This document shows positions 68-57,988 of a stretch of DNA of 64,000 bases, piece after piece. The stretch lies in IMG/VR virus record IMGVR_UViG_3300021197_001769; one strand, given 5' to 3'. The notes beneath the pieces are model-generated. The model was not told the DNA's origin. It saw only the letters and a list, made by a program, of their open reading frames with translations, and did not search any database. The translations under genes were made by a program, and so were the position numbers. This DNA is from a virus. Each line of letters starts with the position of its first letter. Within the stretch, counting starts at the first letter, position 1.

Positions 68-2266
68 TTACGCTCCTGCTACTTCTTCAAAACTAACGCC
101 GGTTCTAACTGCGACGAAGTTAAGAGTTATAAAGTTAATTGAACGATTAGGTTTGATATAGATGTCAGCTACGAATCTATTACCATCAATAACCGCCGGT
201 GTATTATTTGAAGTATCACAAACTACTTTAAAGTCTTGGCATCCTCTTCTTGCTTTTATATCTTGTAAGAAAGGCTCTACTGCTGCTACAAAATTAGCTC
301 TTGTAAAGTCGTCGTTGAATTCAAAGAGTTGAAACTTGGCTGCAGTTGCAATTGCTTTTTCTAATACAATGAATAATCTTCTTACATTAATACGATCAAA
401 AGCTGAAGGTTTACTTAGTGCAGTTTTATCACCAAATAGTAATGTACCTTGACCTCTTTGAGTAACCATAGGGTTGACTCTTTCTCTATACAGAACATCT
501 CTGTCTGCTTGTTGAGGATTGAAAGATAATTTAACTACATTGGATACAAAACCTCTATTGAAACCTGCTGGTGACCACCAAGCATCATTAGTGAATTCTG
601 ACCTTGCGGTGATACCTGCTGTATCACCTGCCATCGCTGACCAGAAAAATTGATCATTATATCTGTCATACATTCTCTTCCAAGCAGAATCGAACATTGC
701 ATACGATGTAGAGTTAAAGTCAGAAAAATAAGTAGTAACTTTAGCTGCAGTTGGATTAACTACTGCTGCATCATAAGATGGTGAGCAAAATACTACACAA
801 TCTTTTCTTACATTTGCAATATTATCTATTGCATACTTTTGTACTACTTTTTGTTTTGTCGCGTTTGAAGAACCGCTACCGAAACTATTACCTAAAATTA
901 ATGAGATATCAATTTCTTCCGGATCTTTAAACTTATCAAGACCTGCTGTATAATCACCTGCATCAACATCATCTCCAGAAGAACCACCATTAAGTGTGTA
1001 TCTTCTTACACCTGTTAGAGACATGTTAGTAACAAATCTTACGAAGTCTTTTTCATTTGCTTTGTAAATATCAATACCTATTGCAGTTACTTGTTCAGAA
1101 TTTGATACTGCTGCGGTAGAATTACCGTTAGCTAGATCTTCTGTAAGTACGTAAATCCACTGTGATGTATTATTAATTATATTTTTATAATAATTTTGAC
1201 CACCATCAGCTGTTTTACCGTTACCTGCTTTAGATAAACCTTCAAATGTTTCAAGTACTTCATATGCAGATCCTGTGATAGTAGTATCAGAGGTGTATAC
1301 AATAACATGTACTTCATCTTGAACATCTGAGTCAAAGTTGTCTACAGACCATTGTGACCTACCTGGTCTCTTTTCAAACAATGTAGCTGCTTTAATTGCA
1401 GCTGAACCAGAGCCAACAATAGGTGTATTGTTAAAGTCTGAATCGTTCATGCCAGCATCAATAAGAGCTACTCCTATACCGTTACCTCTATGACCAGGGA
1501 ACCTAGCATAGACTGAACCATTGATAAGAGTACTTTCTTCAGCATTAAAGTCATCTAAATTATTAAGAACTGCTGCTGTAGCAAAACCAGAACCTTGTTC
1601 AGCTTCTTGATAAGGAGTAAACGTTAGTCCTACTGTAGTTACAGCTGAAGGAGCAGTTGCAGCGGCTGGTGTTGTAAAAGTAATTGCTGTATCACCTGCC
1701 AATGCTGCGGCACCGTCGGAGTCTATCGCGGCGTCTGTGGCATTAGCTTCAGTATTGATAGCATTCTTTAAGATGTTTGCAACGTCACCAATGGATGAAA
1801 TATCGTCGGAATCAGTAACTGTAAATTGAAATGCAGATGCGCTTGTAACTGCTCCAATGGTTACTGTCTGAGTTTTATGTCCCTCACCATCTGAATCGGG
1901 AAAAGTAAAAGCTGGGGTACCAGTAATACTAATTGTTGTCTTTCCTGACTCTAATGTAACGAACTCTGATGCAGCGTTTCTAGCGCCATCAGTTAAAATT
2001 CTTACTATTTGAATTGCATTTGCGTATGATAAAAAGTTCGCAGCTGTGTACCAATCGCTTCTAGTACTTTCACCTGCTACTGTTGATACTTTTGGGTTAC
2101 CAAACTTTGCTATTAACTGTTCTTCACTTGAAATAAGTGTAGGTTCTAGACAAGGTCCCCATTCAAAATTTCCAGCAAATGCACCTGTTGTAGTTGCTAC
2201 AGCAGGTATAATATTGGTAAGGTCTTTTTCTTTTACCTGTACACCTGGACTAACTTGGAAGGCCAT
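68..2266 (-). CDS. gp18: Tail sheath protein
   Basis: N-term SPGVQVKEKDLT and FEWGP; C-term WWSPAGFNRG, GDKT, FDRINVRRLF, FEFND, IKPNRSINFITLNF. Confidence 0.98.
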   Translation of the reverse strand: MAFQVSPGVQVKEKDLTNIIPAVATTTGAFAGNFEWGPCLEPTLISSEEQLIAKFGNPKVSTVAGESTRSDWYTAANFLSYANAIQIVRILTDGARNAASEFVTLESGKTTISITGTPAFTFPDSDGEGHKTQTVTIGAVTSASAFQFTVTDSDDISSIGDVANILKNAINTEANATDAAIDSDGAAALAGDTAITFTTPAAATAPSAVTTVGLTFTPYQEAEQGSGFATAAVLNNLDDFNAEESTLINGSVYARFPGHRGNGIGVALIDAGMNDSDFNNTPIVGSGSAAIKAATLFEKRPGRSQWSVDNFDSDVQDEVHVIVYTSDTTITGSAYEVLETFEGLSKAGNGKTADGGQNYYKNIINNTSQWIYVLTEDLANGNSTAAVSNSEQVTAIGIDIYKANEKDFVRFVTNMSLTGVRRYTLNGGSSGDDVDAGDYTAGLDKFKDPEEIDISLILGNSFGSGSSNATKQKVVQKYAIDNIANVRKDCVVFCSPSYDAAVVNPTAAKVTTYFSDFNSTSYAMFDSAWKRMYDRYNDQFFWSAMAGDTAGITARSEFTNDAWWSPAGFNRGFVSNVVKLSFNPQQADRDVLYRERVNPMVTQRGQGTLLFGDKTALSKPSAFDRINVRRLFIVLEKAIATAAKFQLFEFNDDFTRANFVAAVEPFLQDIKARRGCQDFKVVCDTSNNTPAVIDGNRFVADIYIKPNRSINFITLNFVAVRTGVSFEEVAGA

Positions 2267-2298
2267 TTTTTGACTCCTTTATTTGTAAATTTACAATA

Positions 2299-2306
2299 TA
2301 TTTATA
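2299..2306 (-). promoter_or_regulatory. T4-type late promoter TATAAATA upstream of gp18
   Basis: Exact consensus on the minus strand, 32 nt before the sheath start codon. Confidence 0.85.
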
Positions 2307-2316
2307 ATCTATAGAT

Positions 2317-4179
2317 CTACGAACCTGTCGGTAACGTATTAGTAAATCGAGGATTATCCCCGCCATGACTATTTATTGTAAACGTTAATTTATATTCAGC
2401 TAAGCTGAACTTATCTTTGAATGCATATTCAATAACATTCGAATCTCTATACAATAATGTATTAAAGAAACCTTTAGCTACAGGATGTGATTCTAGGTTG
2501 TAAGCTAGCACCCTTAATATATTTGCATCTGATGAACCTTTAGCAAATATCATAGTATTAGAAGACACTGTAGATCCGTCTCCGGATACAACTCTCCAAG
2601 TAACACTCATTTGAGCTTCTAATATCTGATCACTATCAGTTGAGAACGTAACTGTCGCTAAGTTTTCAGAATCAGTTGGTACAGGAGTTGCAGGTGTTGA
2701 GCTTGAAGTAACTCCTATTAAAGTATTCAATTTAGCTATATCACCTTGCATAGTACCTATTAATGTACCCAATGCTTGAATAGCTATTTCATCTGAATCT
2801 CTATCAGATCTTAATAAATTTATTTTATTGGTAAGTACATTTATATCTGAATCGCTAGCGCCGCCTGATGAACCTACTTTACTAGTAAAATGTACAAAAT
2901 CTGAATCCATATCTGATTTTATTCTACCAGCTAAAGACTGAATATATGTCATTCTAGTAGTTTCACTATCAATGTCAGCTCTTAATCCATCTACTTCATT
3001 TCTCAATGTAGCAGCTACTGCAAGATCAGAGTCACCAATACCTACAATACTTCTTATCTTATCTTGAAATAAATTATGATCACTATCTAATCTAGCTCTT
3101 ACTTGAGACTGCAATAAACTTAACTTAGTACCTTCAGAGTCTAATCTTAATCTCATTTGAGATTGAAGTACTGATACTTTAGCTGCCTCTGAATCTAATC
3201 TTAATCTTATGTCAGATACTCTACTATCTAAAGCAGCTCTATCTGAATCTATTCTAGTATGAATTATATCTTGAGCAGTTTTTAATGCTTGTACTACTAA
3301 TGAATCTGAATCTAGTCTACTGGTTAAATTAGTTTTTAACAACTGTACTTTAGTTGACTCAGAATCTAATCTTACGTGAGCAGCATCAGCTCTTGCTTGT
3401 GCAGCTGCAGTCGAAGTACTTAGTGCTTGTAATGCTGCATCGTCTGAATCTAATCTTGATTTTACTTGAGTAGCTAACGCTTGTATAAAACTTGAATCTG
3501 AATCTAATCTAGCAGTAATAGTATTGACATTATTAGATAGATCAGCTACAACTTTTAAGTCAGAGTCGGAAGGTATTTCTAATACTCTTAAACCGTTCTC
3601 TCTTATTATTTCTATAACTTGATCACTATCAAATCCGGCAGAACCTACACCTAGTATACCAATATATTGACCACCACTAATGTATATGCTTTTGTCTGTA
3701 AAGTCTTTACCATTAGGTAAGTTTTCACCCATAAAGTGTAACACACCAGACTGATAATCAAAAAACCATTCATCGTCATTACCAGAACCAGCAGCAAATA
3801 GCTGATTAGATATTCCAGCTGCATTATCACTGTCACCTGAATCGTGTAGATATACTTTTACTTGATATGTTGAACCAAATTCAGGTGGTATCCAATCTGT
3901 GACACCAGTAATCCAAGTTCTATTAGCACTCGCTGTACCATCTGCTACAGCTTCAACTAAATTGCTTGAACTATATACTTCTACAACTCCTGTAGTACTT
4001 GCAGGTAAAGTAGCTGGTATAAGATTAGCTTGTACTAGAGTTTTATCACCTCTGTTTAATAATGGAGATGCAATAGATTCGTTAGTTGGACCTTTTAATG
4101 AATCAGAGTCAGTTCTAGCAACACCGAAACCTAATTTCTTAAAAAGAAAGTCTACCTTTGCTGTTAAACTAATTGCCAT
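2317..4179 (-). CDS. Putative virion fibre/structural protein with RLDSD coiled-coil repeats
   Basis: 620 aa; globular N-term, central amphipathic repeats beginning RLDS[DE]; within the structural operon. Confidence 0.7.
   Translation of the reverse strand: MAISLTAKVDFLFKKLGFGVARTDSDSLKGPTNESIASPLLNRGDKTLVQANLIPATLPASTTGVVEVYSSSNLVEAVADGTASANRTWITGVTDWIPPEFGSTYQVKVYLHDSGDSDNAAGISNQLFAAGSGNDDEWFFDYQSGVLHFMGENLPNGKDFTDKSIYISGGQYIGILGVGSAGFDSDQVIEIIRENGLRVLEIPSDSDLKVVADLSNNVNTITARLDSDSSFIQALATQVKSRLDSDDAALQALSTSTAAAQARADAAHVRLDSESTKVQLLKTNLTSRLDSDSLVVQALKTAQDIIHTRIDSDRAALDSRVSDIRLRLDSEAAKVSVLQSQMRLRLDSEGTKLSLLQSQVRARLDSDHNLFQDKIRSIVGIGDSDLAVAATLRNEVDGLRADIDSETTRMTYIQSLAGRIKSDMDSDFVHFTSKVGSSGGASDSDINVLTNKINLLRSDRDSDEIAIQALGTLIGTMQGDIAKLNTLIGVTSSSTPATPVPTDSENLATVTFSTDSDQILEAQMSVTWRVVSGDGSTVSSNTMIFAKGSSDANILRVLAYNLESHPVAKGFFNTLLYRDSNVIEYAFKDKFSLAEYKLTFTINSHGGDNPRFTNTLPTGS
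3079..3510 (-). repeat. Eight R[LI]DS[DE]-anchored coiled-coil repeats, spacings 18/28/18/21/18/18/18 aa
   Basis: Counted directly in the translation; degenerate at DNA level. Confidence 0.85.
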
Positions 4180-7708: not shown

Positions 7709-8299
7709 CTAGTTGCCTGAGTTATCGTCTGTATCTAGTACATATCCTCCGAATACAACACTATTAGAAGTATTTCTAATTTCTAATTTGTGTGCGTCTG
7801 TAAAAGCATTACCATCAAAGTTAAATGCTTGACCTGCTGTAATAGTAATACCACCTGGGAATGTGTATCCACTATTCAATGCTGTCTTAACAGCTGAAAC
7901 TGCTACTGTATCAGAGTCTAATCTAGCTATGATTTCTGTTATTTTTGGATTCAATTGAGCCATAATGAAATCAGAGTCAGCTACTTGATTAAGTTTTGAT
8001 ATAATCAAACCGTGCTCTGAGTCTCTATCTGCTCTTAAGTTATTAACAGCTGCTGATAAGTTACTTAACTTAACTGTATCAGAATCTAATCTAGCAATAA
8101 GTCCTGGATTAGTACCTGTGTCAATAATAACAGCCCATTTAGTAGCATCTGATCCAGGGGTTACACCTGAGAAGCCACCTGATACTGCTGAGTATGCAAT
8201 ACCTTCGTGATGTACTGTATCTAATTTTTGGTATGTTGTACCGGCGTTATAAGCGCCTTTAAAAACGAGTCTTACTCGTCCTAATATCTGAGTTGCCAT
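7709..8299 (-). CDS. Small fibre-like structural protein with possible carbohydrate-binding N-terminal module
   Basis: FKGAYNAGTTYQKLDTVHHEGIAY resembles CBM5/12-like repeats; followed by RLDSD coiled coil. Confidence 0.6.
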   Translation of the reverse strand: MATQILGRVRLVFKGAYNAGTTYQKLDTVHHEGIAYSAVSGGFSGVTPGSDATKWAVIIDTGTNPGLIARLDSDTVKLSNLSAAVNNLRADRDSEHGLIISKLNQVADSDFIMAQLNPKITEIIARLDSDTVAVSAVKTALNSGYTFPGGITITAGQAFNFDGNAFTDAHKLEIRNTSNSVVFGGYVLDTDDNSGN

Positions 8300-8669: not shown

Positions 8670-10208
8670 TTAGAACGTCATGTATGTTATACCTATGGTA
8701 AACCTATCATTGGTTGCCATATGAGAGTTGTTAAGAGTTCCTGCCGATGTATTATTCTCAGATGACCTAAATGATCCAACAGATGCATCAGTTGAAACAT
8801 AAAAATTAACAAAATTACCAGAATTATGATCCGGACCTTGTGCACCAACTCCATCAAAAGCAACTGAACCAACAGACCTATCACTTAAATCTGCGCCATT
8901 ACCTGTTGCAAATGGTAAACTTATATCTATAACTCCGTTTGGACTACTTTCACCAGTTATATGTAATTGACCTTGCAAGTGAACCATTCTACCAATTTTT
9001 ACATATGACAATTTTGTAGCACTATCTCCAAGAGTATAGCTACCACTTGTCCTACCTGTGACTGTAGGGGTATATATACCTTCTTCATAATCATCAAGCA
9101 GTTCACCGGTCATACCAGTAGCATCACTTGTGGCACTAAAATCTATACCATGACCATTTGCTACTATAACGTTGCCATCAGTTAGAGTTAATCCATTGCC
9201 TACAGTTACTGTACCATCAACTTCTAATCCTGTACCATTAATTAATTGAAGTGTGTCGCTATTAAATCTTGCACTAATATTATTTGAGCCAGCTTTCTTA
9301 TGAGTTATTTCAATAATACCATCTTCAGTTCCGTCACTAGCGTCTTGTATTTTTCCTGTAATTTTTGCATATACTATTTCTTGGTTAGCATCATTTTCAC
9401 CTTTGAACTTTATTTGACCTAAGTAATCTGCGTCGGCTACACTAGAACTATTACGTTTAAGTGTAATCACTGGACCTGCATTATTAGAATCTTCAGTTGT
9501 AGTAACTAATATACTATCATCTGTAGTTGTGTTATTAACAGTTAAAGTTTGGAATGTGTGATCTGAATCTATACCACCTAAACCAGCTATGTTAGCTGTA
9601 TTAGTATTTGTAGCTGCTTTTAATGATTGTATTATTATACTATCACTGTCTAGATCTGCTCTCGTCTTAGTTGCTAATGATTGAATAGCTGCGCTGTCTG
9701 AATCTAGCCTGTTTGTAATTTCACTTATTTTTGATATCTTTATCGAATCTGAATCTCTATCAGCTCTAAGAGATAATATAGCACCACCAACTGAGTCTAA
9801 TGTATCGTTACCAGTTAAGAATAATATCTGTCCATCAGAGTCAATAGTCAAAGTACCTGAATTTGCTACATCATCATTTGTGTTTAATAATATTTGACCA
9901 TCACTGTCGACTACTAAAGTACCTATTTGTCTATCAGCATCATCAGAATCTAATCTGTTTATTAAACCGTCTACTTTGTTTTGTAAATTTGCGACTTTAG
10001 TTAAGTCACTATCTTCTATTTCGGCAACAGATGCGAAGGCAAGTGAACCAGAGACAACCTTTAAAATTTGATTGTCAGAACCAATAGTTGAGGGAATACT
10101 AACGTTACCTACAGTAAGTCCTTTAACGGTTGTACCGCCTGAAGTAACGAAAAGGTCAGAGTCTCCTACACGAAGACCGTTTTTTATCATAAAATTTTTT
10201 TGTGCCAT
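8670..10208 (-). CDS. Tail fibre protein
   Basis: 512 aa; C-terminal LLDDYEEG.YTP...YVKIGRMVH domain typical of phage fibre tips; N-terminal DSD-rich stalk. Confidence 0.8.
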   Translation of the reverse strand: MAQKNFMIKNGLRVGDSDLFVTSGGTTVKGLTVGNVSIPSTIGSDNQILKVVSGSLAFASVAEIEDSDLTKVANLQNKVDGLINRLDSDDADRQIGTLVVDSDGQILLNTNDDVANSGTLTIDSDGQILFLTGNDTLDSVGGAILSLRADRDSDSIKISKISEITNRLDSDSAAIQSLATKTRADLDSDSIIIQSLKAATNTNTANIAGLGGIDSDHTFQTLTVNNTTTDDSILVTTTEDSNNAGPVITLKRNSSSVADADYLGQIKFKGENDANQEIVYAKITGKIQDASDGTEDGIIEITHKKAGSNNISARFNSDTLQLINGTGLEVDGTVTVGNGLTLTDGNVIVANGHGIDFSATSDATGMTGELLDDYEEGIYTPTVTGRTSGSYTLGDSATKLSYVKIGRMVHLQGQLHITGESSPNGVIDISLPFATGNGADLSDRSVGSVAFDGVGAQGPDHNSGNFVNFYVSTDASVGSFRSSENNTSAGTLNNSHMATNDRFTIGITYMTF

Positions 10209-10272: not shown

Positions 10273-10280
10273 TATTTATA
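10273..10280 (-). promoter_or_regulatory. T4-type late promoter TATAAATA
   Basis: Exact consensus overlapping the stop codon of the 530-aa gene. Confidence 0.75.
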
Positions 10281-11903: not shown

Positions 11904-12326
11904 TTAATTACGTATTAGTGTAAGATTAATCTTGAACTCGGTTTGGTTAGCACTAGTGGTTTGTGATCTAAGTTCACATAAACTTCCATTTATTACAGAA
12001 CTAAAATCTACAAAGCGACTACTACTTGAAAATAATGTAGCATACTCTGTAATATCAACTGAATCACTATCGCAAAATAACAAGACTTCAGTCACCATCT
12101 TGTCATCAGTGATTTTATCCGTGGCTTGTATCACGAACTTAGCGGAACCATAGCTTAACTTACTAAACTCTGCTATCTTTCTAACGGATGAAGTAGCCGT
12201 TGCCGTAGCTCCGGAAGCGTAAGTAAAGACAGCGATGTCACTGTCTTGGAAATCTATTTTATCTACAAGCATGTTTTCAATAGTTAAAACACGGTTATTT
12301 AGATTGTACTTTAGCTGGCGCGCCAT
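11904..12326 (-). CDS. Putative structural protein, paralog of the C-terminal domain of the 530-aa protein
   Basis: AKFVIQATD..TEVLLFCD..ITEYA aligns by eye with MKVLVTAAN..SEVLLTHD..FVEYG. Confidence 0.6.
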   Translation of the reverse strand: MARQLKYNLNNRVLTIENMLVDKIDFQDSDIAVFTYASGATATATSSVRKIAEFSKLSYGSAKFVIQATDKITDDKMVTEVLLFCDSDSVDITEYATLFSSSSRFVDFSSVINGSLCELRSQTTSANQTEFKINLTLIRN

Positions 12327-44140: not shown

Positions 44141-44947
44141 TTACCATTTCTCCCCTTGTATTGCTAACTTAGATGATAATAAAAATTTTATCATAGAACC
44201 AGTTATATCTATTTCATACCATGCTCTGCTAAAATTCCAATCCCAGGGTTCAGCATGATGATTATTATGCCACCCTTCACCGAATGTTAACAGTGCTACC
44301 CACCACACATTTGAACTATCGTTATCTTGTTTATATCTTTTATAACCAAGTTCGGAGTGTGCGAACGTATTATTTATTATACTTGTAGTGATTCCTATTA
44401 CAGATGGTAAAATGAATCCCCAATATAATCCATACATACCAAAAATACTAAACATTACAGCTGCATGAATTAAAATTATTAGAAAATAATATTGATGTAA
44501 AAGTACTTGAAACTTATCTTTTATAATATGTCTATACTCTAATAAGTTAAACTTAAACGAATCATACTTATCATTCTTTAAAAAAACTAATCCTTTATCT
44601 GGTGAATGAGGATCTTTTTCCGTATCAGCATGCTTATGATGCTCCCAGTGAACTATAACCCAAGTTAAAGGACTACCTGTACCTTGAATAGCTCCTAGGT
44701 ATGAACCTAATCTTTCCATCCATTTGTACTTGAACTCAAATGATTGATGTGTAAGACATCTATGTAAAGTCATAGTTATTCCTATGCATCCAGTTAAGAA
44801 GTATACAAATAATGATATTGAAAAACCTAGTAAATCAATAGGAAAACTAAAAGTAAAAGGTAAAGTTAATGCTAATAGTATAAGTAAGTAATGTAGTAAC
44901 TTTATTTTTCTACCAGTTGGACTGAATACGTTTAATCGATCTAACAT
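44141..44947 (-). CDS. Membrane fatty-acid desaturase (delta-9/acyl-CoA type)
   Basis: HRCLTH, HWEHH..DPHSP, GEGWHNNHH. Confidence 0.93.
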   Translation of the reverse strand: MLDRLNVFSPTGRKIKLLHYLLILLALTLPFTFSFPIDLLGFSISLFVYFLTGCIGITMTLHRCLTHQSFEFKYKWMERLGSYLGAIQGTGSPLTWVIVHWEHHKHADTEKDPHSPDKGLVFLKNDKYDSFKFNLLEYRHIIKDKFQVLLHQYYFLIILIHAAVMFSIFGMYGLYWGFILPSVIGITTSIINNTFAHSELGYKRYKQDNDSSNVWWVALLTFGEGWHNNHHAEPWDWNFSRAWYEIDITGSMIKFLLSSKLAIQGEKW

Positions 44948-47900
44948 TTGCTTTCTTTAGATATCCTTTCTGAACTAATTTACCAGTAAACCAAACTATA
45001 GGTCTAAACAATCTTAAGACTAAACTATTAAATGTAAAATAGTTACCCTTCATTTCTTCTTGTAGACCATGAGTTCTAGTTTTTGCAAACCATTCTAGAG
45101 CAGTTCTTATATAAGTATTTGTAGGCATCTTCTTTACAAAGTATAAGAACAGTTTATGATATCCTAATTCATAAGCATCATCAAGTTTCTTAAATTTATT
45201 ATATCTCATCCATACTCTATTAGAATACATTGGCATATTGTACATTTTATTCATCATAGTACATACAATTTTACCACCGCCGCCTCCGCCGCCTTCGGAA
45301 CTGCTTCCATCGTCATGACTTCCGTGACCAAAGTCACCATAATTCATATCCATATAACTAGGATTATAAGATGGTGGACTATCACCCCAAGAGTCACCGC
45401 CTCCTCCGCCACCGCCGTAATTTAAGTACTCAGTAGAAGATGAAGTAACAGTTTGCTCTTCTGTTCTAATTATAACGTCTTCAACTCCATCAGTTCTAAA
45501 CTTAGATAAAAATCCTACTTCATACTTAGAAGCGACAATATAGATAGCTGATGCTATAGTAGTTTTAGTTGAATCAAATAATGTAAATCTTAATTGACCA
45601 GTTTTAAAAGTTGAAGGAGGAATAGTAAATCTACCTCTTATCATTCCTAATGCATCAGTAGTTAATGTACCTTTATTTGTATTAATATAAGTAACATCAC
45701 CTGTAGAATTATCAGTCATCTGACATAAATCAGTAACATTAATATATTCAAAAGTAGCTATAAGACTTACATCAGGTCTTAAACCTTCTGCTTTAAAAAC
45801 AATTTCTCTAGAAGGACAAAATGCATCTCTATCAATTTTAACTTGTTCTAAATTAAAACTATTAGCTGTATCTCTAGTAACGAATTGCTTCTGTTTTATA
45901 TTTCTAATTTGATTTTGAGCTGTATTAACTGTTCTTCTATTACCGCTTCGTGAAGTAGTTACAGAAGCATCACCTATATCATTCCAAGATTCTGACCAAG
46001 GCTCTGACATCGGAATAGGTACTACGTTTAAGTTAAATTCATTTACTGATACTTCTGAGTCATTTACTATACCATTTCTATCAATAAGAAACTTAGTAAG
46101 TTCTTTTTTAGCTGGGTCTACGTTAAACTCTCTAGCGGGATCTAATGTAATATAACCTTTATATGTTAACTCAGCATATGGGTTTATTCTTACACTTGAA
46201 GAAGCTTGAGGTTGATCTAAAAATGTACTTTGCGTATAAGTCTTAGTTAAAAAACCTTGATCAAAATAATAAGGATCTATACCTGCTTCAGTAAGCGCAC
46301 CAGCTGATGAATCTAATATTTCTGTTTCTACATAAGTAGGTACTGATAATGGTCTTAAAGATTCATCTGCAATTGATGCTTTAGATGTAGATAAGTCATT
46401 ATCTTGAATAACATCATCTTTATCAGTCTTAAAATCATCTACGATGAATCCTAACTTAGTTCTATTAGCTGTATCATCAGTTAAAGCTTGAGTTTCTAAG
46501 AATGATAATGAAATGGCATCTTCTAAATTTCTAATTCTTTTTTCAATACCACCAATATCTTTCATAGTATATCGTTTATTGTCTTGAGGTACAGTTATAA
46601 TTTCACTTACATCTTTAAATGCAGCTGGTATTAATGCAGTTGCAATTGGCATACCTAATGATGAATCAAACTTTGGTATTTGAGGATTTCTTGCTGCTAA
46701 TGAGCTAAATCTTTTCAATCCAAAATAAGGTTTAGTAGCTACATAATAGATATCATATCTAGATAGATACTCATCATAAGTCATTGTAAATTTAGCTGCA
46801 GGAGTAGCTCCTGTTTCACCTATACCAGGTAATAAGAAAGGTCTATTTGTAATAGACTTGTGATTAAAATGGAAAGTATTTTGTCCAGTATTATTATTTG
46901 TAGTTACTTTCTTTCTAAAATCAATTACGTCTCTTAACTTTATACCTTTTGTTCTATCTTTATTACCTAAGTCAACTGGCTTTTCGAAAAATCTAGGATC
47001 AGTAGCGAAGAAGCCTGCTGAAGAATAACTATCAGCATTGTAATAAAACTTATTAGTTGTATCTTGATCTTCAAAATAAGAAAAGAATATAGTTAAATCA
47101 CCTACTTCAGGAGCTCTAATTAATGGTTTTCTTATAATTCTTCCAGTTTCTAATATATTATTTCTTTGACCATCATCTAAGAAATAATTATCTATAATAT
47201 CAGTACCGAATTTTTCAAGAGTGTCTACTATTATTGCAGTTCTATCAGAAACATAAGTTACTTGATTTACAAAACTATCTAAGTCATTAGGTGTTGTAAC
47301 TAATAATATCTCATTAGCAATAAAATTAGATGTAGCGTTTTCTTTAATAATTTCTAATACTTCAGTAGAACCTGTACCTGATCTACTAGTATGGTAACCT
47401 GCAGAACCTGTTAATTCAGATTGATTTTTATCGCTATTAGATAAAGCAACTAAACCTCTACACTTAGAAGTTGTTCCAGTTACAATTGAACCTTGAGGTA
47501 TAATACCTCCGCCTGATATTGTAATGTTTATTTGTTTAAAGTGAGAGAAAGTATTATTAGCATCACTCTTACTTATTCCATATACATCATAGATATCAGA
47601 ATACAATAAAGTTGATTCTCTATCTTGAGCAGACCAACCATAGTTAATTGAGCTTGTTCTATCATTTCTAATTTTTAAGTAAACATACTTAAGCTTTTTA
47701 CTTATTTCATTACCATCATCAATTCTAGTTCTAGTAAAATCACCATTAGCATTAGCAGTAGAAAATAATGTATCAGCTGTATTGGGTGTTATAGCTGTAG
47801 ATCCAGAAGTACTAGCAATCACAGGTGGATTAGCAAACAATACTTCAAAATCATTATCGAATACTTTAGCGTCATCTCTAGCAGTTTTAACTGCACTTTG

Positions 47901-49550
47901 AGTTTCACCAAATAATTTTCCAGTAGCATTTTGTACTTTAGCTAAAGATTTTTTCTCTACTTTAAAATTACCTGTTTTACTTCTAATGTTAGTTATGTTA
48001 GCCCAACTATAAGTAGTTGTAGCTGCAATAGTTGAATTAAATGAAGTATTAACAGAAGATCTAATTACTTGACCTTTTCTAAAAGGTTTGTTAAAATCAA
48101 TAACTAATATTTCAGAATCAGTTACGTGATCAACATCTGCAGCTCCAGTGCTTTCTAACTCTACATAATAACCTTTAGTATCTCTAGTTGATTTAACATC
48201 ATTACCTATACTTAAAGTTTTAGGAGGACCTTCTAGTCTTAACTTTTGGAAAAACTTTATATCGTATAAATGCAACTTAGGTTGATTTCTATCTTCTAAT
48301 GCGTATGCTCTAGCATAACCATAAGTACGACTATCTGAATCTTGTAATAATAATCTATTAGCATGTAAGTGAGGATCGTTACTAGTGGCGCTTGTAAAAC
48401 CACCCATTGCAACATCTGCTTCTTTATTTACATTAATATAAGGTACACCAGTTACTGCAATAGTTTGACTATTAACTCTATTAAATGATAACGGTTTTGG
48501 TACTTTTAGATTAGTATTAACTCTTTGATCAATTCTAAAACCTCTTACATAAGCTTTAATCTTTGATGAGTTAACATAGAATGCATCTTCGCTATCAGAT
48601 CTACTATACTTTATTGAAATAGGATCTACTGAAAAGTCACCATGACCTTCAAATGTTCTAGTTGCTAAAACATCTCCTATACCGCTATTAACGCCGCCTC
48701 TAGTACTTTGTTGTTGAGCAACACCGTTTTCAATAACCATAACTTGAAAAAAGTTAGGATCATTATTAGCAGTTAATGATCTAATACCAAACGATAAAGT
48801 CTGTTTTAGTCTATGAGCTCCAGGAGCTCCTTCATTAGTACTACCTCTTGCATTATCAAATAAAGTAGCATCACTATTCGGTGTAATTAAACTTTCACTA
48901 ACTGTAAATCCTAATTTAACTGAAGGATTTTTATTTGTAGCATCAATTACAACTGTTTGTTTAGCTACTCTAGTAAAGAAACCTTGTATATAATATACAC
49001 CTTCTTCAATATGAGCTAATGAACAATCAGATATAGCTGAATAAGTATTGTATATCTCAGCTGTTAAAGAAGGGTTATCTGCAACAGTAGCATATATGTA
49101 TCCACCAGCTGTAGAAAAAGTAGTTGAAGTAATATATTTTAAGTAGATAGAACCTACTGAATTAGTACCTACTGTTCCAACAGGGTTAGATAATACTACA
49201 GCTTTAACAGAACCTGATGCATTTGAAATTACTTTACCTTCTAAAGTAGATAAATTTGCTAGTATAGCTCCTATTCTAGCTCCTGTAGAAGGAAATGAAA
49301 TATTAGATGAGCCAGTTAAAGTCATCTTTTTACTTTGATTGTCAAAATCAATTTTAGCGCCTGTTACTCTGGAACCATCTTTAAACAGATAATTACCCAT
49401 TCTTGTAATTTGTTGCTGTAAAATTGTTTGTGCTTGTGATAACTCTCTTGCTTGAACTGGAAAACCAGGTCTAAACAAAACTCTTAAAAAGTCTTTGTTA
49501 TCATCAAAGTCATCAAAGTAAGGACTTATATTTAAATCTATATTGGCCAT
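44910..49550 (-). CDS. VrlC/DUF4815-like virion protein, N-terminal part, with Gly-rich linker and KIVCT C-terminal domain
   Basis: LNISPYFDDFD..VLFRPGFPVQARELSQAQ, APGAHRLK, LDDGQR, NKRYTMKDIG.IEKRI, GFIVDDF, INPY. Confidence 0.88.
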   Translation of the reverse strand: MANIDLNISPYFDDFDDNKDFLRVLFRPGFPVQARELSQAQTILQQQITRMGNYLFKDGSRVTGAKIDFDNQSKKMTLTGSSNISFPSTGARIGAILANLSTLEGKVISNASGSVKAVVLSNPVGTVGTNSVGSIYLKYITSTTFSTAGGYIYATVADNPSLTAEIYNTYSAISDCSLAHIEEGVYYIQGFFTRVAKQTVVIDATNKNPSVKLGFTVSESLITPNSDATLFDNARGSTNEGAPGAHRLKQTLSFGIRSLTANNDPNFFQVMVIENGVAQQQSTRGGVNSGIGDVLATRTFEGHGDFSVDPISIKYSRSDSEDAFYVNSSKIKAYVRGFRIDQRVNTNLKVPKPLSFNRVNSQTIAVTGVPYINVNKEADVAMGGFTSATSNDPHLHANRLLLQDSDSRTYGYARAYALEDRNQPKLHLYDIKFFQKLRLEGPPKTLSIGNDVKSTRDTKGYYVELESTGAADVDHVTDSEILVIDFNKPFRKGQVIRSSVNTSFNSTIAATTTYSWANITNIRSKTGNFKVEKKSLAKVQNATGKLFGETQSAVKTARDDAKVFDNDFEVLFANPPVIASTSGSTAITPNTADTLFSTANANGDFTRTRIDDGNEISKKLKYVYLKIRNDRTSSINYGWSAQDRESTLLYSDIYDVYGISKSDANNTFSHFKQINITISGGGIIPQGSIVTGTTSKCRGLVALSNSDKNQSELTGSAGYHTSRSGTGSTEVLEIIKENATSNFIANEILLVTTPNDLDSFVNQVTYVSDRTAIIVDTLEKFGTDIIDNYFLDDGQRNNILETGRIIRKPLIRAPEVGDLTIFFSYFEDQDTTNKFYYNADSYSSAGFFATDPRFFEKPVDLGNKDRTKGIKLRDVIDFRKKVTTNNNTGQNTFHFNHKSITNRPFLLPGIGETGATPAAKFTMTYDEYLSRYDIYYVATKPYFGLKRFSSLAARNPQIPKFDSSLGMPIATALIPAAFKDVSEIITVPQDNKRYTMKDIGGIEKRIRNLEDAISLSFLETQALTDDTANRTKLGFIVDDFKTDKDDVIQDNDLSTSKASIADESLRPLSVPTYVETEILDSSAGALTEAGIDPYYFDQGFLTKTYTQSTFLDQPQASSSVRINPYAELTYKGYITLDPAREFNVDPAKKELTKFLIDRNGIVNDSEVSVNEFNLNVVPIPMSEPWSESWNDIGDASVTTSRSGNRRTVNTAQNQIRNIKQKQFVTRDTANSFNLEQVKIDRDAFCPSREIVFKAEGLRPDVSLIATFEYINVTDLCQMTDNSTGDVTYINTNKGTLTTDALGMIRGRFTIPPSTFKTGQLRFTLFDSTKTTIASAIYIVASKYEVGFLSKFRTDGVEDVIIRTEEQTVTSSSTEYLNYGGGGGGGDSWGDSPPSYNPSYMDMNYGDFGHGSHDDGSSSEGGGGGGGKIVCTMMNKMYNMPMYSNRVWMRYNKFKKLDDAYELGYHKLFLYFVKKMPTNTYIRTALEWFAKTRTHGLQEEMKGNYFTFNSLVLRLFRPIVWFTGKLVQKGYLKKANVRSIKRIQSNW

Positions 49551-49563: not shown

Positions 49564-51030
49564 CTAAAATGTCAATACAAAGTTGAATGATTCAATTTGA
49601 TCTATTGCTCTTGTTATTTGTTGTGATCTTATATCAGATATAATAATATCTCCTGAGTTAAACAGTACTTCTCTATTAGCTACCGAAGAAATAGTTAAAG
49701 GATTACCAGTCAAAGAGCCTGTTGCATTTACTAATTGTAAGTTGTCTCCAGCTATGAATGAATCTTTATCTTTTGTTTTACCTAAGTTTACATAATAATA
49801 TTTTTTCTTACTAGAATCTATAGCTACTATTCTTCCTACTTTACTTGTAGTACTAGTAAAATTATTACCAGATACAGTTCCTGTAGCAACAATATCACCA
49901 ACGTTAAAAGTAGCATTACCACCATCGCTGTCACTTGCTACAAAAGCTTTACATGCAATTAAAAAATCATTCTTAGCTACTTTACCTGTTGATCTATCAA
50001 TAGGATTTCTCAATAAGTTAACTTGTCTAAAATTATTTCTAGTAAATTTAGTAACGTCTCCATCAGGTGTATTTCTTACACTCACCATAACATTTTTTGC
50101 ATTTAATTCTAATGGAGCATTAGTTCCGTGTCCTAATCCAGGAGCTACATTTACAGTTAAACCGTTAGGTGTATTAGATCCTATCTTAGCAATAGCACCT
50201 TTACTGTAACCTTCACCTGGTGTAATTAAATTAAAAGTAAAATCAGAATCAGTCTTAGTTATAGATCCTGCAAATGTTGTTACTGGTGTTGTAGAAGTAC
50301 TATTCTGTAAAGTTAGTGTAATGGTAGTTGGTATACTAGTCCAGTCACCGTAAATAGTTCTTAACGAAGTTTCGAAAGTTGAATCATTTATTGCAACATC
50401 ATAAACTGTACCTACTTTACTATCTCTTTGAACTTGAAATTGTTTAAATTTAGCTGTACCAGGATTTAAAGTTAAAGCTTCAGCTACAGATACTGCTTCC
50501 GGTATAGGAATATAACTTTCAGTAACAAATCTTAGACTATCAGAAGCATCAATAGTGTACATATAAATCCAATGATAACCATCAGCAGTCGTAAACGGCA
50601 AGCTCGCGTCTCCAGAAGGTGACGCAGTTGAAGGGCTTCCCGGATAATGAAGTACCTTGTAAACATTTAATTTTGTAACCCCTTGAATGATTGACGTAAC
50701 CATTGCGTAACTATCTGCTATATAAGTTGTACCACTAGTCCAGTTTACTCTTGGGACAACTCTTGATACACCACCTTTAGCTAATTTATGAGCACTTATT
50801 GCATGCTGCATATAATAAGTTTGGTCGTCATTATTAAAACCAGCTGATTCACCGCCAACAAATTCAGCGTCATCATCTATTCCATCACTATCAGTATATC
50901 TTTGTAAATCAGAATCATTATTAAAACATATAAACGCATAATACTCATCATCATTTAAAGTATCTCTTAGATTGTCTCTAAAAGATTTTGCTACTAACAC
51001 ATTTAATCCTGTCGTAATTTTTGCTGTCAT
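49564..51030 (-). CDS. gp8: Baseplate wedge subunit
   Basis: VVPRVNWTSGTTY, NVYKVL, DGYHWIYMYTI, GHG.NAPLEL, NFRQV.LLRNP. Confidence 0.88.
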   Translation of the reverse strand: MTAKITTGLNVLVAKSFRDNLRDTLNDDEYYAFICFNNDSDLQRYTDSDGIDDDAEFVGGESAGFNNDDQTYYMQHAISAHKLAKGGVSRVVPRVNWTSGTTYIADSYAMVTSIIQGVTKLNVYKVLHYPGSPSTASPSGDASLPFTTADGYHWIYMYTIDASDSLRFVTESYIPIPEAVSVAEALTLNPGTAKFKQFQVQRDSKVGTVYDVAINDSTFETSLRTIYGDWTSIPTTITLTLQNSTSTTPVTTFAGSITKTDSDFTFNLITPGEGYSKGAIAKIGSNTPNGLTVNVAPGLGHGTNAPLELNAKNVMVSVRNTPDGDVTKFTRNNFRQVNLLRNPIDRSTGKVAKNDFLIACKAFVASDSDGGNATFNVGDIVATGTVSGNNFTSTTSKVGRIVAIDSSKKKYYYVNLGKTKDKDSFIAGDNLQLVNATGSLTGNPLTISSVANREVLFNSGDIIISDIRSQQITRAIDQIESFNFVLTF

Positions 51031-54000
51031 TAATCTGTTCTCGTTTTATAATACTGACTTGGACTTCTATAGTCACTATCACCTTCTAAAAGATTTAATT
51101 CTGTCTTATTTAATGGGTCTAGATAAGTATTGGTCCAAACGATATTGTTTGGTTTAACCCAAAAATCTCTCTTAACAGGATTCTTTTCTTTCGCATACTG
51201 CGGTATTTTATTTAATTGGTAGTAGAACTGTCTTACTTTATGACCTTCAGCAGCGTTTTGTATTGCAGAAGACCAACCTGCTATTTCCCAACCTTCTTTA
51301 TTTACTCTTGCAACATGAATAGTATTCCATTTTTGTTGAAAAGCTTCAAGATCAAATAACTCCTGACTACCAATATTAAAACTAAATTCGTTATTTAGTT
51401 TATTAGCTTTAATAAAATCTTTTTGCATTTCTAAATTATACTCAAAATCTCTTTTAGTAATATTTTGTTTTACAATATCAGAATCATTGTCTTTTAATTT
51501 TTGATAATTAATACCTTTAAAGAGATGTTTATCATCACTGTCATTAGAGTATCTACCATCACTATCATTTAAGTAGTCAAATCTAATAAATTTAATTCTA
51601 TTAACTTTTTCTGAATCAAAAAGCAAAAAGTTATTTTCTCCTGCTGGGAATGTAGTTTGACCTATTTCAATTATTTTTTCATCTGGAAATCTATCCAAAG
51701 TTTTATTTTTAAAATAATCTTGATAGTGTTCACTATCTAAATTTACATCAGGGTATAACTTTGTAGTAAAAGTTTTTTCATGAACATTGATAGATCCATC
51801 TGAATCTTTTGTTTGAGTAGATCTAGGATCAATATAACCTAATGGTTCATAATCCCAAAAACTATTTCCAAATTCTGCATCATCTCCTTCTTCAGCTACT
51901 GATGATAAATTATCAGCTGATATACTTCTACCATCTGGTGTAGATATATTAAAGAAGTTAAAAGGGTTAGAAGCATATAATACTGAAGATGCAGTAAGTA
52001 AATTGGCTGAAGTAGTTGCGTTTATACTATGATCCATTGATCTATCAAAAGTCATTTTATGCTGTTCACCAGAATCGTACCCGCTACTTGATTTATTTGA
52101 AGTATCTGAAACGGCTGAATTAATGTTTAATTGAGCTAATAATCTAAATCCAGCTGGGTGTAAAATTTCTTTAACATACTCTCTCCACTGAGCAATAGAT
52201 AAATTTGATTTTAAACTGTATGAAAAATTATCAAAGAATAAATTATCTCTAATTACTCCACCTGATAAACTATTACTAAAACCTTTATCATCTAAAAATT
52301 GTTTACTAGTTTTTCCAGAACCTTCAAATGATAATGTACCGGTTGCTCTTTGATGGTTTGCAATAATATTTTTATAAGGAAAAGTTTCACTGACTACTGT
52401 TTCGTTAGTTTCTGTATCAACAGGAGCTAATCTTAAAACTTTATATCTCTGATTTTCAATAACTGATAAATCTGAATCAATAGGAAATCTATCAGTAGAA
52501 ACAATTCTAGGTGCTTGAGTTAACTTAACAACATTTTTATTAGCTGTTACAGAAGTTATTCTTCCTATAAAATTAGTATCTTGAAATCTACCTACACTAT
52601 CATTTAAACCTACAAAAGGTGTATTCTTAAGTTGTTTAAATGATATCTGTCTATACTTATCACTATCTTCATAACTAGTTAATTGGTCAAAATGAAAATT
52701 ATCTAGACCTTTTAGTCTAGGGTCTTGTAAAAATATTCTTAAACCTTCAGAGTCACGGTTACCTTTATCATCACTGTCTATAACATCAAACCTGTAAGTA
52801 CTATCTGATCCTATTTGATTCTGTAATAAAGTTCTAAATGACTTAGATAAATTTTCACCAATAGTATGACTAAATTTAAATTCACTATCTACCCATTGAT
52901 AATTTTCAAAATCAAACTTATAAGGTATTCTAACTCTTATATCTTCAGAGTCATTTGTAGTAAATTTTCTATTAGTAAACTTTACAGATATTCTAAAACT
53001 ATCTGAATCATCTAAAAACCCATCAGAGTCAGCTTCAAATCTTTGAATTCTTACTGTTTGTCCTTCAGTGAGATCTGACTGACCATGAACAGTTATATTC
53101 ATAGGAAATATAACATCTACACCATCTGAATCAAAGTAACCTTTATTAAAGAAACTAAAATTATTAATCTTACCTATTTGATTAGAGAAAGGAACTATCT
53201 CTGTATTAGTTCCGTTTAGAGATAATATTTTTACATCAGGTAACTCGTTAAAGTTACCACCTTCATTGATAGGAACTGTTACGTTTTGAAAATCGTTAGC
53301 AAGAAAACCAGTACCTAGTTGTCCTAATCTAACGTTATTATTATCTATCTCAGTTATTCTTCCTGCGTTATCAACTCCTGTAATAATAGCACTACCACCA
53401 GAACCAGAACCAGAACTTTTAGAAGTAAAAGTTATTGCATCTCCAACAACGAAATCTATTCCTCTATTTTTTACAGTTGCACCAGTAACAGGGCCTGCTT
53501 GTAAACCTTCTATAGGTACACTAAACTCTCTATTATTTTGAATTATTCTAACTTCATCTCCGGCACTATAACCACCTATATCACTATCATCTATTTTTAT
53601 AGATTTAATTTGTCTTAAAACTGTACCAGTAATAAAGTTTGAATTATCTATAGTACTACTCACAACTATTTCAGAACCAACAGTTAAGTTTAATGCAGCT
53701 GCAGAAATTAGTTGCACTACAGATTTAGATCCTATAGTATTAACTTTAGTACCAGATAAACCTGTTCCTATTTCACTATCATCTTTTATTATGCTTGTTT
53801 TTGAAAAATCGATATTGTTCAAAACTTTGTCTGAGTCATTTACTAATAAAGCTAATGTATCAAATGATATGTAGTTACCTTCGGAAGCATCTAGTATTTG
53901 CTGACCAGGTTGTATTACATCTATCTCAGTATTGAATAATAATCTAAAAAGTAACTTAAAGCTATTAGGTGTGCCTTTACTTAGATAAACATCTCTTATT

Positions 54001-54311
54001 TTTTTAATTAAAAATCTATCATCAGAACCTTCAGGTACAACTGCAATAGGTAGAATATCTCTTTTAAAATATTCTAAAAACTTAACAATAGTTTTATCTA
54101 TGTCTCTATTTTCAGTTTGTCCTTGAATAAGATTATTAGCATTACCTAATTTCTTGTAAGCTGTTAATCTAGTAGTAGTTTCTGAATCATTAACTTTTTC
54201 AAGATATTCATAGTAAGCCTCCATAAATGATACTAAAAGAGGATTATTAGCTCTTATAAAGTCAGGAATCTGCTCACTGATATATGGAAATACTTTTGTA
54301 TACTGAGTCAT
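51030..54311 (-). CDS. gp7: Baseplate wedge initiator (gp7-like)
   Basis: QIPDFI..P.LVSFMEAYYEYLE, YLSKGT..SFKLLFRLLF, FSYSLKS..WRE.VK.ILHPAGF; position between gp6 and gp8. Confidence 0.78.
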   Translation of the reverse strand: MTQYTKVFPYISEQIPDFIRANNPLLVSFMEAYYEYLEKVNDSETTTRLTAYKKLGNANNLIQGQTENRDIDKTIVKFLEYFKRDILPIAVVPEGSDDRFLIKKIRDVYLSKGTPNSFKLLFRLLFNTEIDVIQPGQQILDASEGNYISFDTLALLVNDSDKVLNNIDFSKTSIIKDDSEIGTGLSGTKVNTIGSKSVVQLISAAALNLTVGSEIVVSSTIDNSNFITGTVLRQIKSIKIDDSDIGGYSAGDEVRIIQNNREFSVPIEGLQAGPVTGATVKNRGIDFVVGDAITFTSKSSGSGSGGSAIITGVDNAGRITEIDNNNVRLGQLGTGFLANDFQNVTVPINEGGNFNELPDVKILSLNGTNTEIVPFSNQIGKINNFSFFNKGYFDSDGVDVIFPMNITVHGQSDLTEGQTVRIQRFEADSDGFLDDSDSFRISVKFTNRKFTTNDSEDIRVRIPYKFDFENYQWVDSEFKFSHTIGENLSKSFRTLLQNQIGSDSTYRFDVIDSDDKGNRDSEGLRIFLQDPRLKGLDNFHFDQLTSYEDSDKYRQISFKQLKNTPFVGLNDSVGRFQDTNFIGRITSVTANKNVVKLTQAPRIVSTDRFPIDSDLSVIENQRYKVLRLAPVDTETNETVVSETFPYKNIIANHQRATGTLSFEGSGKTSKQFLDDKGFSNSLSGGVIRDNLFFDNFSYSLKSNLSIAQWREYVKEILHPAGFRLLAQLNINSAVSDTSNKSSSGYDSGEQHKMTFDRSMDHSINATTSANLLTASSVLYASNPFNFFNISTPDGRSISADNLSSVAEEGDDAEFGNSFWDYEPLGYIDPRSTQTKDSDGSINVHEKTFTTKLYPDVNLDSEHYQDYFKNKTLDRFPDEKIIEIGQTTFPAGENNFLLFDSEKVNRIKFIRFDYLNDSDGRYSNDSDDKHLFKGINYQKLKDNDSDIVKQNITKRDFEYNLEMQKDFIKANKLNNEFSFNIGSQELFDLEAFQQKWNTIHVARVNKEGWEIAGWSSAIQNAAEGHKVRQFYYQLNKIPQYAKEKNPVKRDFWVKPNNIVWTNTYLDPLNKTELNLLEGDSDYRSPSQYYKTRTD

Positions 54312-57069: not shown

Positions 57070-57088
57070 GTTTTACCAAAAAAGGTTG

Positions 57089-57096
57089 AATAAATA
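57089..57096 (+). promoter_or_regulatory. Late-promoter variant AATAAATA, 4 nt before ATG
   Basis: AATAAATA-AGAC-ATG. Confidence 0.7.
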
Positions 57097-57100
57097 AGAC

Positions 57101-57988
57101 ATGGCCAAGAATAATAGAAGAATTTTCAATCAAATCGGAAGAGCACAAGTCACTGGTTTAGTTGATAAAAATAATAATAGTTTATTAGCTGATTCTGAAT
57201 CAAGTGGTATTGTATCTTTTGATAACGTACGAATTAACGGAGAGCTAAAAGTATACGGTAATCAAACTACCGTTAATTCTGTAACATTAAATGTAGCAGA
57301 TAAAAATATTGTTTTAGCAAAAGGTGCATATGATTCTGATTCATATGACAATGTAGGTATTACTGTTGCAGATAGTGATGCATTATTTGAAAGAGGTACT
57401 TCTCCTACATTACAATATAATGCTCAAAGAGATGCTTGGATTGCTAATAGAAAAATATTAGTTAATACTAACAAAGAAGCAGCTACAGATTCAGACGCAA
57501 CAGTTACTATTGGTGGTTTTAGTACTCAATTAGCAGCTAATACTAAATTTGCTGACTTAGTTGCTAGAGCAGATTCAGATACAATTAAAGTATCTTCTCT
57601 TCAAACTTTTGTTAATAAGTTAAGAATTGATTTAGATTCAGATACTTCTAAACTTCAGTCACTTGATACTACAATAGGTTCAATTAAAGCTAAATTAGAT
57701 TCTGATAGTAACAGACTACAAGCAATAAGTACTGAGTTTAAAGCTAGATTAGATTCTGATACAACTAGAATAAGTTCTATAAATCGTCAATTGAATATTA
57801 ATACTGCTAACATTCAAAGTATTACTCTAGACTCAGATGGTGTTGTGAATATGTTCAATGAGCATTCATTAATTAACATTACTGCTGATTCAGATATTCT
57901 AAAGCCGCTCTTTAGAAAAGTTATGAACGACTTTACAATAAGAGATGTTGGTAATAATATAGTATTCAGCTTCTTCGACGAAACTTAA
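57101..57988 (+). CDS. Fibre-like structural protein with LDSD coiled-coil repeats
   Basis: INGELKVYGNQTTVNS..LNVADKNIVL phage fibre motif; about 10 DS[DE]. Confidence 0.7.
   Translation: MAKNNRRIFNQIGRAQVTGLVDKNNNSLLADSESSGIVSFDNVRINGELKVYGNQTTVNSVTLNVADKNIVLAKGAYDSDSYDNVGITVADSDALFERGTSPTLQYNAQRDAWIANRKILVNTNKEAATDSDATVTIGGFSTQLAANTKFADLVARADSDTIKVSSLQTFVNKLRIDLDSDTSKLQSLDTTIGSIKAKLDSDSNRLQAISTEFKARLDSDTTRISSINRQLNINTANIQSITLDSDGVVNMFNEHSLINITADSDILKPLFRKVMNDFTIRDVGNNIVFSFFDET

Follow-up and report, generated by a model that had tools for sequence, protein, structure and literature searches.

An Asp-Ser-Asp/Glu tripeptide enriched in the outer tail proteins of one clade of marine T4-like phages

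The locus

The window analyzed here is a 64,000-nucleotide stretch of a virus genome (IMG/VR record IMGVR_UViG_3300021197_001769), a T4-like myovirus segment with a GC content of 30-36% whose genes were identified by PHROG and Pfam searches. Its proteins carry a short element, Asp-Ser followed by Asp or Glu (hereafter DS[DE]), that recurs far beyond chance in parts of the phage tail and that an initial annotation, made by eye from the letters, had described as a virion-wide tag. Fibre-like proteins are encoded at 2317-12326, 36612-39346 and 57101-57988, and T4-type tail genes lie among and between them. The genes concerned, with their DS[DE] counts, are as follows.

68..2266, minus strand: tail sheath gp18, 732 amino acids (aa) (phrog_23, E 8.5e-109); 5 sites, all at residues 124-312
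2317..4179, minus strand: 620-aa fibre-like protein; 19 sites, mostly in coiled-coil repeats of 18 or 21 residues
4179..7682, minus strand: 1167-aa fibre or PKD-like protein, its PKD_4 match weak and below the cut-off (E 4e-4); 15 sites
7709..8299, minus strand: 196-aa fibre-like protein; 4 sites
8670..10208, minus strand: 512-aa fibre-like protein; 9 sites
10276..11868, minus strand: 530-aa fibre-like protein, C-terminus matching phrog_967; 17 sites
11904..12326, minus strand: 140-aa protein; 2 sites
12375-14210: large terminase; no site
14200-14571: small terminase; no site
36612..37922, minus strand: 436-aa structural protein; 10 sites
37922..39346, minus strand: 474-aa protein with a gp9/gp10-like N-terminus (PF07880, E 3.8e-7); 6 sites
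39359..40351, minus strand: gp15 tail sheath stabiliser, 330 aa (phrog_227 over residues 1-209 only); 7 sites
40348..41385, minus strand: gp14 neck protein, 345 aa (phrog_460); 5 sites
42287..44140, minus strand: C-terminal part of VrlC, 617 aa (phrog_358 profile positions 1764-2055); 4 sites
44910..49550, minus strand: N-terminal part of VrlC, 1546 aa (phrog_358 profile positions 2-1237); 4 sites
49564..51030, minus strand: gp8 baseplate wedge, 488 aa (phrog_438); 4 sites
51030..54311, minus strand: gp7-like baseplate wedge, 1093 aa; 20 sites
54311-56119: gp6; no site
56119-56529: gp25; no site
57101..57988, plus strand: 295-aa fibre-like protein; 10 sites
62257..63660, minus strand: gp5 baseplate hub, 467 aa; 1 site, the chance level

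A strict tripeptide selected at the protein level

We translated the open reading frames (ORFs) of at least 100 aa in the window (n=57), counted DS[DE] in each and derived expected counts from 300 composition-preserving shuffles of every protein. The tripeptide occurs 142 times in 20 ORFs, against about 11 expected from composition, an excess of about 13-fold; the shuffle expectation per protein is 0.1-1.3, and the tail-module proteins reach z scores of 3-19. All by-eye counts of the initial annotation were reproduced exactly. Roughly 28 of the sites lie within coiled-coil repeats of 18 or 21 residues and are thus not independent of one another, and the T4-type proteins alone (sheath, gp15, gp14, VrlC, gp8 and gp7) hold 49 sites against 4.3 expected. 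Not one of the 29 ORFs at 12375-36567 (terminase, a neighbouring enzyme island and a 310-aa ORF) carries the motif; for the terminase and island ORFs, where its absence had already been noted by eye, 3.6 copies are expected.

When all 8,000 tripeptides were ranked over the tail-module proteins, DSD stood out most strongly (120 observed, 7.6 expected), DSE ranked fifth (22 observed, 3.6 expected), and the three between them, LDS, RLD and SDS, all overlap the motif. The initial annotation had named a correction for composition as a check on its reading; the enrichment survives both the per-protein shuffles and this ranking, and we reject a composition artefact. Near variants in the same proteins stand at or below chance: DTD (1 observed, 7.2 expected), ESD (3 and 3.6), NSD (4 and 6.6), DSN (3 and 6.6), DSQ (0 and 3.2) and DDD (2 and 6.6), and likewise DGD, DAD and DND. 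The pattern therefore admits Ser alone at the centre, Asp alone at -1, and at +1 Asp in preference to Glu, with neither Asn nor Gln.

The motif serines are encoded by TCA (62), TCT (45), AGT (27), AGC (5) and TCC (3), near general usage, with AGY making up 23%, and the motif as a whole is written in 25 different nine-base versions. Because the serine codons are mixed at near-background proportions, selection acts on the protein, as had been argued from inspection, and a cause at the level of DNA, such as a nucleotide motif (for example, GANTC inside GATTCNGAT), is rejected.

Distribution over the virion

The motif is confined to the outward-facing parts of the tail: the outer sheath, gp13, gp14, gp15, gp7, gp8, VrlC and the fibres. 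Within the window gp6, gp25 and the 792-aa, 243-aa, 268-aa and 310-aa ORFs lack it. Contig L001, whose sheath is identical to that of the window over its 684 aa and which extends beyond the window start, adds further structural genes: no copy occurs in its tube, prohead protease, scaffold or major capsid protein, one occurs in the portal and two in gp13. Two further contigs, G001 (109 kb; 184 sites, 25 expected) and G006 (152 kb; 189 sites, 31.5 expected), are close relatives with proteins 80-95% identical and count as roughly one comparison; in both, the sites fall in gp7, gp8, VrlC, gp13, gp14, gp15, the sheath and the fibres, with none in gp6, gp25, tube, portal or terminase and one in gp5. 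The description "virion-wide" is thus too broad, since the capsid, tube, protease, scaffold and inner baseplate (gp6 and gp25) are without the motif.

The seven gp15 sites are all found past the conserved core, in a C-terminal extension (residues 252-317). The five sheath sites map, in an alignment of that protein, to insertions or to loops flanked by indels.

Two ORFs of G006, of 216 and 321 aa (36231-36881, or L174:16231-16881, and 41968-42933, or L175:1968-2933), have five DS[DE] each, against about 0.2 expected, and no Pfam match. They sit amid genes that mostly match replication and nucleotide-metabolism genes of the Pelagibacter phage HTVC008M, and their motif content may mark them as tail or fibre components that have escaped recognition. 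One ORF of 2,085-2,090 aa encodes VrlC in G001 and G006, against two ORFs (1546 and 617 aa) in the window, where a 268-aa membrane fatty-acid-desaturase-like gene on the same strand (44141-44947, minus, with His-box motifs) separates the pieces.

Restriction to one clade

Eighty IMG/VR loci were collected by large terminase (TerL) match, and the motif status of each contig was judged on mechanically called ORFs. Loci with a TerL at least 66% identical to that of the window are rich in the motif wherever they include tail genes (for example, L025 with 126 sites against 8.3 expected and L009 with 50 against 3.8), whereas those at 50-57% identity carry DS[DE] at chance. Chance levels likewise prevail in HTVC008M, the closest cultured relative by sheath similarity (20 observed and 26.6 expected over the whole genome), in G007 (148 kb; 20 and 27), in G010 (14 and 14.4 over the whole contig), and in cyanophage-like contigs and a sister group. 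A quick TerL tree places 16 motif-rich rows, ten rows without an assigned status and no motif-poor row on one side of a single branch (SH-aLRT support 100, branch length 0.68), and all 56 motif-poor rows, HTVC008M and G007 included, on the other. DS[DE] enrichment is thus restricted to one clade of uncultured marine T4-like phages. Orthologues from ordinary T4-like phages, the comparison proposed by the initial annotation, stand at chance in HTVC008M, G007 and the cyanophage-like loci, and we reject a general property of T4-like tails.

The GenBank phage collection contains no TerL at least 60% identical to that of the window, the best among the matches listed being 55%, so the clade has no cultured member there; a nucleotide search of GenBank phages with the window gave no match. 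Relatives in the motif clade have a CsgF/CsgG curli-like gene set (G006 70415-76726, G001 14546-20246) in common with HTVC008M at 46-73% identity, or 59-73% for all but one ORF, whereas G007 has no match; this shared set ties the motif clade to pelagimyophage-like phages.

An unbiased scan of the tail proteins of HTVC008M and G007 for another tripeptide "code" returned nothing in G007 and one repeat module in HTVC008M. The module, 24 residues of the form VFEGSTADSFETTLTxxDPTADR, builds four paralogous fibre proteins (44145-54905; L084/L085) and inflates SFE to 21 copies against 1.7 expected; this is ordinary repetition rather than a motif scattered over proteins.

Conservation of the sites

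Orthologues in the window and G006 are 32-64% identical, and of 52 window sites 25 have a DS[DE] at the aligned position in G006. In gp7, 10 of 20 sites are conserved in position at an overall identity of 32%, and in gp14 all five are. Sites are also gained and lost, since the same proteins hold 83 in G006 and 52 in the window. Twelve of the 25 conserved motif serines have switched codon family (TCN versus AGY), as have 33 of 120 other conserved serines. In the family of the 295-aa protein (alignment A2, 17 homologues), Asp and Ser are invariant at six of ten sites and +1 alternates between Asp and Glu. This pattern of conserved residues and changed codons indicates strong purifying selection on the motif.

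In other clades the same proteins have at most one DS[DE], and the residues aligned to the motif sites in motif-poor orthologues form varied loop sequence that is often D-x-D/E-like (DAD, DGD, DND, DPE). Tail proteins of these relatives show no enrichment of the D.[DE] class (observed/expected 0.84-0.95), and within the motif clade D-x-[DE] with a centre other than Ser is depleted (0.64-0.85).

Structural settings

Between about 28 sites, by a strict test, and perhaps about 45 lie in repeats of 18 or 21 residues with the form RLDSDsxxxQxL. Hydrophobic residues are enriched at -8, -5, -1, +6 and +9, a heptad register in which the hydrophobic residue at -1 takes position a and the Asp or Glu at +1 takes core position d; this fixed register with a polar core residue applies to about 28-45 of the 142 sites. 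The 295-aa protein was modelled with AlphaFold 2 (AF2) at a mean predicted local distance difference test score (pLDDT) of 59; the score exceeds 90 over residues of about 160-230 and falls mostly below 50 in the N-terminal 140 residues, so that six of the ten sites are placed with any confidence. Residues 148-239 form one continuous helix that holds the sites at 158, 179, 200 and 218, and the sites at 244 and 263 are the first residues of two further helices.

About 114 sites lie outside the coiled-coil register, in varied settings and unrelated folds. Among all sites, 23 read DS[DE]G between runs that resemble beta-strands (in gp15, gp7 and the 436-aa protein, for example), a pattern seen in the sequence. 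Given such different settings, no single local conformation or intrachain chelate geometry would seem to fit all sites, and the presence of the motif in helices, at helix N-termini, in putative hairpin turns and in loops favours recognition of the linear tripeptide.

The neighbouring island and candidate writers

A 21-kb island rich in enzyme genes lies between the small terminase and the fibres, inside the morphogenesis module. The parts that concern us are the following.

19969-20538, 20511-21074 and 22384-23109, minus strand: three paralogous genes resembling GT-A-fold glycosyltransferases, without a Pfam match
within 19969..23109, minus strand: a methyltransferase-like gene (assigned by reading the sequence, without a Pfam match) and an iron-sulfur (FeS)-assembly gene
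23097..35047, minus strand: eight radical SAM genes (PF04055 by Pfam; four carrying a SPASM-like domain at the N-terminus), interspersed with RIO-like kinase and QueC-like genes

The island further holds two AspH-like genes, a TauD gene and a desaturase-like gene. In four of the radical SAM genes (27174-28349, 30073-31434, 31352-32590 and 33626-35047; Pfam coordinates) a Cys-rich, SPASM-like domain precedes the radical SAM core, reversing the usual order. Four consecutive ORFs at 17422-19993 (plus strand) show HxD...H cupin-like signatures, and only the last, 19526-19993, has an AspH match in Pfam, below the cut-off (E 4e-4). With TauD and the AspH-like gene at 15915-16589, these ORFs may make up a series of 2-oxoglutarate oxygenases.

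The three GT-A-like genes are the nearest candidates for a local O-glycosyltransferase and the most plausible ones. The 189-aa member is predicted to fold as GT-A (AF2, pLDDT 88.5), with UGGT, LARGE1 and alpha-1,3-galactosyltransferase as Foldseek neighbours (E ~1e-6), and both Asp residues of its DxD motif (D60 and D62) are invariant in the family (alignment A1). A profile search of the family against PDB sequences gave insignificant glycogenin matches only. Family members measure about 190-235 aa and lack a Pfam model. They are very frequent in marine metagenomes, amounting to 239 protein clusters with at least 353 IMG/VR loci, and their genes usually adjoin a methyltransferase-like gene and radical SAM genes.

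Comparison among phages does not follow the island. Radical SAM (PF04055) matches number one in motif-rich G001 and two in motif-rich G006, versus six in motif-poor G007 and nine in motif-poor G010. In L025, with its 126 sites, gp15 and the fibre genes run almost directly into the terminase, and the gap holds only a 308-aa and a 90-aa ORF, neither matching an island gene. Motif-poor G010, conversely, has a window-like island with radical SAM, GT-A-like, TauD, AspH-like and desaturase-like genes. The island of G006 contains AspH-like and SDR (short-chain dehydrogenase/reductase)/epimerase-like genes and a weak GNAT match. On these comparative data the island is not the writer of the motif, at least not as a unit. 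Two desaturase-like genes, the sole non-structural families that the window and G006 have in common and that are rare in motif-poor contigs, were considered as writers and rejected, since they occur in G010 and in L130, whose 20-kb locus has DS[DE] at chance.

Interpretation

The initial annotation offered DS[DE] as a possible sequon or ligand site of the virion surface. That proposal gains from the composition tests, from selection at the protein level, from the lack of the motif in ordinary T4-like phages and from its staphylococcal precedent, and loses its virion-wide reach and its Bacteroidetes precedent. We favour, tentatively and at somewhat less than even likelihood, a linear sequon for a putative serine modification, probably O-glycosylation. 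The clade would have spread DS[DE] over solvent-exposed tail, neck, outer baseplate and fibres as a recognition sequon, and the central Ser would be marked post-translationally in the infected cell, with O-glycosylation the most likely chemistry. The asymmetric strictness of the motif fits recognition by an enzyme better than an effect of charge or capping. Its varied structural settings, its conservation despite changes of codon family and its confinement to outward-facing tail parts of a single clade also speak for a sequon. The writer could be encoded by the GT-A-like genes beside the fibre genes, which are the nearest candidates; because that family is not specific to motif-bearing phages, it may instead be a diverged paralogue, a gene outside the window or a host enzyme. 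A bolder form of the proposal, which we hold to be possible and rather doubtful, is a three-residue code, with about 140-190 sites in each gene set and thousands in each particle, that would direct serine modification to the entire outer tail surface and not the head, through a writer belonging to no recognised protein-modifying family.

The closest parallel is the glycosylation of staphylococcal serine-aspartate (SD) repeats by SdgB and SdgA (PMC8561734; PMC3794999), which the initial annotation had rightly invoked: SdgB, an enzyme of the GT-B fold, O-GlcNAcylates a minimal DSD peptide (PMC8561734). There, too, the acceptor Ser is flanked by Asp, as in the DSD that dominates the window, and a cytoplasmic enzyme acts on proteins destined for surface display. 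The staphylococcal targets, however, are long disordered (SD)n tracts in a few adhesins, whereas here isolated tripeptides sit in folded proteins; no DSDSD occurs in the window proteins, where the longest (SD)n has two units. The enzymes differ as well, SdgB belonging to GT4 and the nearby candidates being small GT-A-fold proteins.

Other systems resemble the present one less. Bacteroidetes O-glycosylation uses the sequon D(S/T)(A/I/L/V/M/T) and takes place in the periplasm. It shares a three-residue motif that starts with Asp-Ser, but its third residue is hydrophobic or Thr and Thr is accepted centrally, while DT[DE] is depleted here, and phage tails assemble in the cytoplasm; D[ST][AILVMT] stands at chance here (76 observed, 72.3 expected), and the precedent drawn from it is not supported. 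Freeman et al., writing on mycobacteriophage virion glycosylation in Cell Host Microbe in 2023, reportedly found that phage glycosyltransferases encoded next to structural genes modify virion proteins, and the sites are said to lie in C-terminal regions of capsid and tail-tube subunits without a tripeptide sequon. Glycosyltransferase-fold genes in the morphogenesis module are common to both cases (known here from the genes), but the capsid and tube modified there are the proteins without the motif here. Trimeric autotransporter adhesins have ion-binding N@d polar layers in their coiled-coil cores; there too a short conserved motif recurs at fixed heptad positions of fibre coiled coils and puts a polar residue at d, although in the phage the core residue is acidic rather than Asn and about 114 copies of the motif lie outside such a register. 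Finally, the host recognition cluster of pelagimyophages (PMC7029224) is, like the island, a variable region of the structural module with fibres, glycosyltransferases and radical SAM cassettes, its glycosyltransferases being attributed to modification of host lipopolysaccharide (PMC7029224). Term searches of that article returned no peptide motif, and the type phage HTVC008M is not enriched in DS[DE].

Several observations weigh against serine modification. Gene families of the window and G006 were scored for co-occurrence with the motif over 24 motif-rich and 99 motif-poor contigs, and none of the non-structural families that the two have in common is specific to the motif. Eighty IMG/VR loci collected for the GT-A-like family are mostly at chance, even where gp14, gp15, VrlC, gp8 or the sheath is in the locus, and GT-A-like, radical SAM, TauD, AspH-like and desaturase-like genes are found in chance-level G007, G009 and G010. 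PF00534 (Glycos_transf_1, GT-B), the class that we take to include SdgB, has no match in G001, G006 or the window island, and searches of G001 and G006 with PF00534, PF00535 and PF01501 gave nothing above the cut-off. Avoidance of the motif outside tail proteins, in motif-bearing phages, speaks for a sequon but is a weak signal (6 observed and 14.1 expected in G001, 0 and 3.6 in the window; 17 and 21.7, and 17 and 18.6, in two motif-poor genomes). The Asp or Glu at d in coiled coils points to a separate structural role, that of a polar core layer binding ions. The motif side of the genome comparison, moreover, consists of the window and two partial genomes (61% and 85% complete), and those two, being close relatives, are not independent.

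The leading alternative, which we regard as unlikely, is that DS[DE] is an unmodified acidic surface site that binds Ca2+, Mg2+ or possibly Fe and either stabilises the tail or the fibres or serves contacts that depend on cations, for example when fibres are stowed or when the host envelope is bound in seawater. The coiled-coil register, which brings Asp or Glu to d every 18 or 21 residues and in a trimer would stack three carboxylates in the core, fits such a site, as do the D-x-D/E-like residues often found at the aligned positions of motif-poor orthologues and the failure of co-occurrence and family searches to yield a writer. Metal-binding DxD sites, however, usually tolerate varied centres and Glu or Asn at -1, and here these variants are at or below expectation; residues i and i+2 would be unable to chelate one ion in both a helix and a hairpin; and, as the ratios above show, relatives show no excess of the wider D.[DE] class in their tail proteins.

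Recognition by a reader that does not modify the motif, either a clade-specific assembly chaperone or a decoration protein with affinity for unfolded or exposed DS[DE], would account for a strict sequence in diverse structural settings, in one clade and in the tail alone. We consider it improbable: at least 140 sites per protein set are many for chaperone binding, no candidate reader was identified, and to our knowledge T4-type sheath and neck proteins do not need such chaperones.

Still less probable is modification by the 21-kb island in the manner of ribosomally synthesised and post-translationally modified peptides, for instance by hydroxylating Asp at the beta position or through radical chemistry at Ser. 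AspH-like and TauD families are Asp beta-hydroxylases and the motif contains two Asp, and eight radical SAM/SPASM enzymes with AspH-like, TauD, kinase-like and PP-loop enzymes are encoded beside the substrate genes. Yet radical SAM counts run opposite to the motif, L025 is motif-rich with no island homologue between gp15/fibres and terminase, G010 pairs its window-like island with chance-level DS[DE], and AspH-like genes are given as core to all pelagimyophages, motif-poor HTVC008M included (PMC7029224).

That the motif has no function and simply reflects expanding repeats and common descent among fibre modules is hardly credible, and refuted for the non-fibre proteins: the 28 to about 45 sites in homologous repeats of paralogous fibre proteins, and the HTVC008M module as an example of how repeats inflate a tripeptide count, speak for it, but the non-repetitive and unrelated sheath, gp14, gp15, gp7, gp8 and VrlC hold more than tenfold the expected number, orthologues in other clades have none or one, and sites have been gained independently in G006 and the window.

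Conclusions

The comparative data weaken the case for the radical SAM island as writer of the code. If the serines prove to be modified, this would be, as far as we know, the first sequon-directed modification in a tailed phage aimed at the exterior of the tail; it would allow modified sites in phage proteins from metagenomes to be predicted by a simple rule and would bear on how the tail fibres of abundant ocean phages meet their hosts, resist proteases and bind ions. If they are unmodified, DS[DE] would still be a surface element of unusual strictness, acquired convergently, with a chemistry that is probably cation binding.

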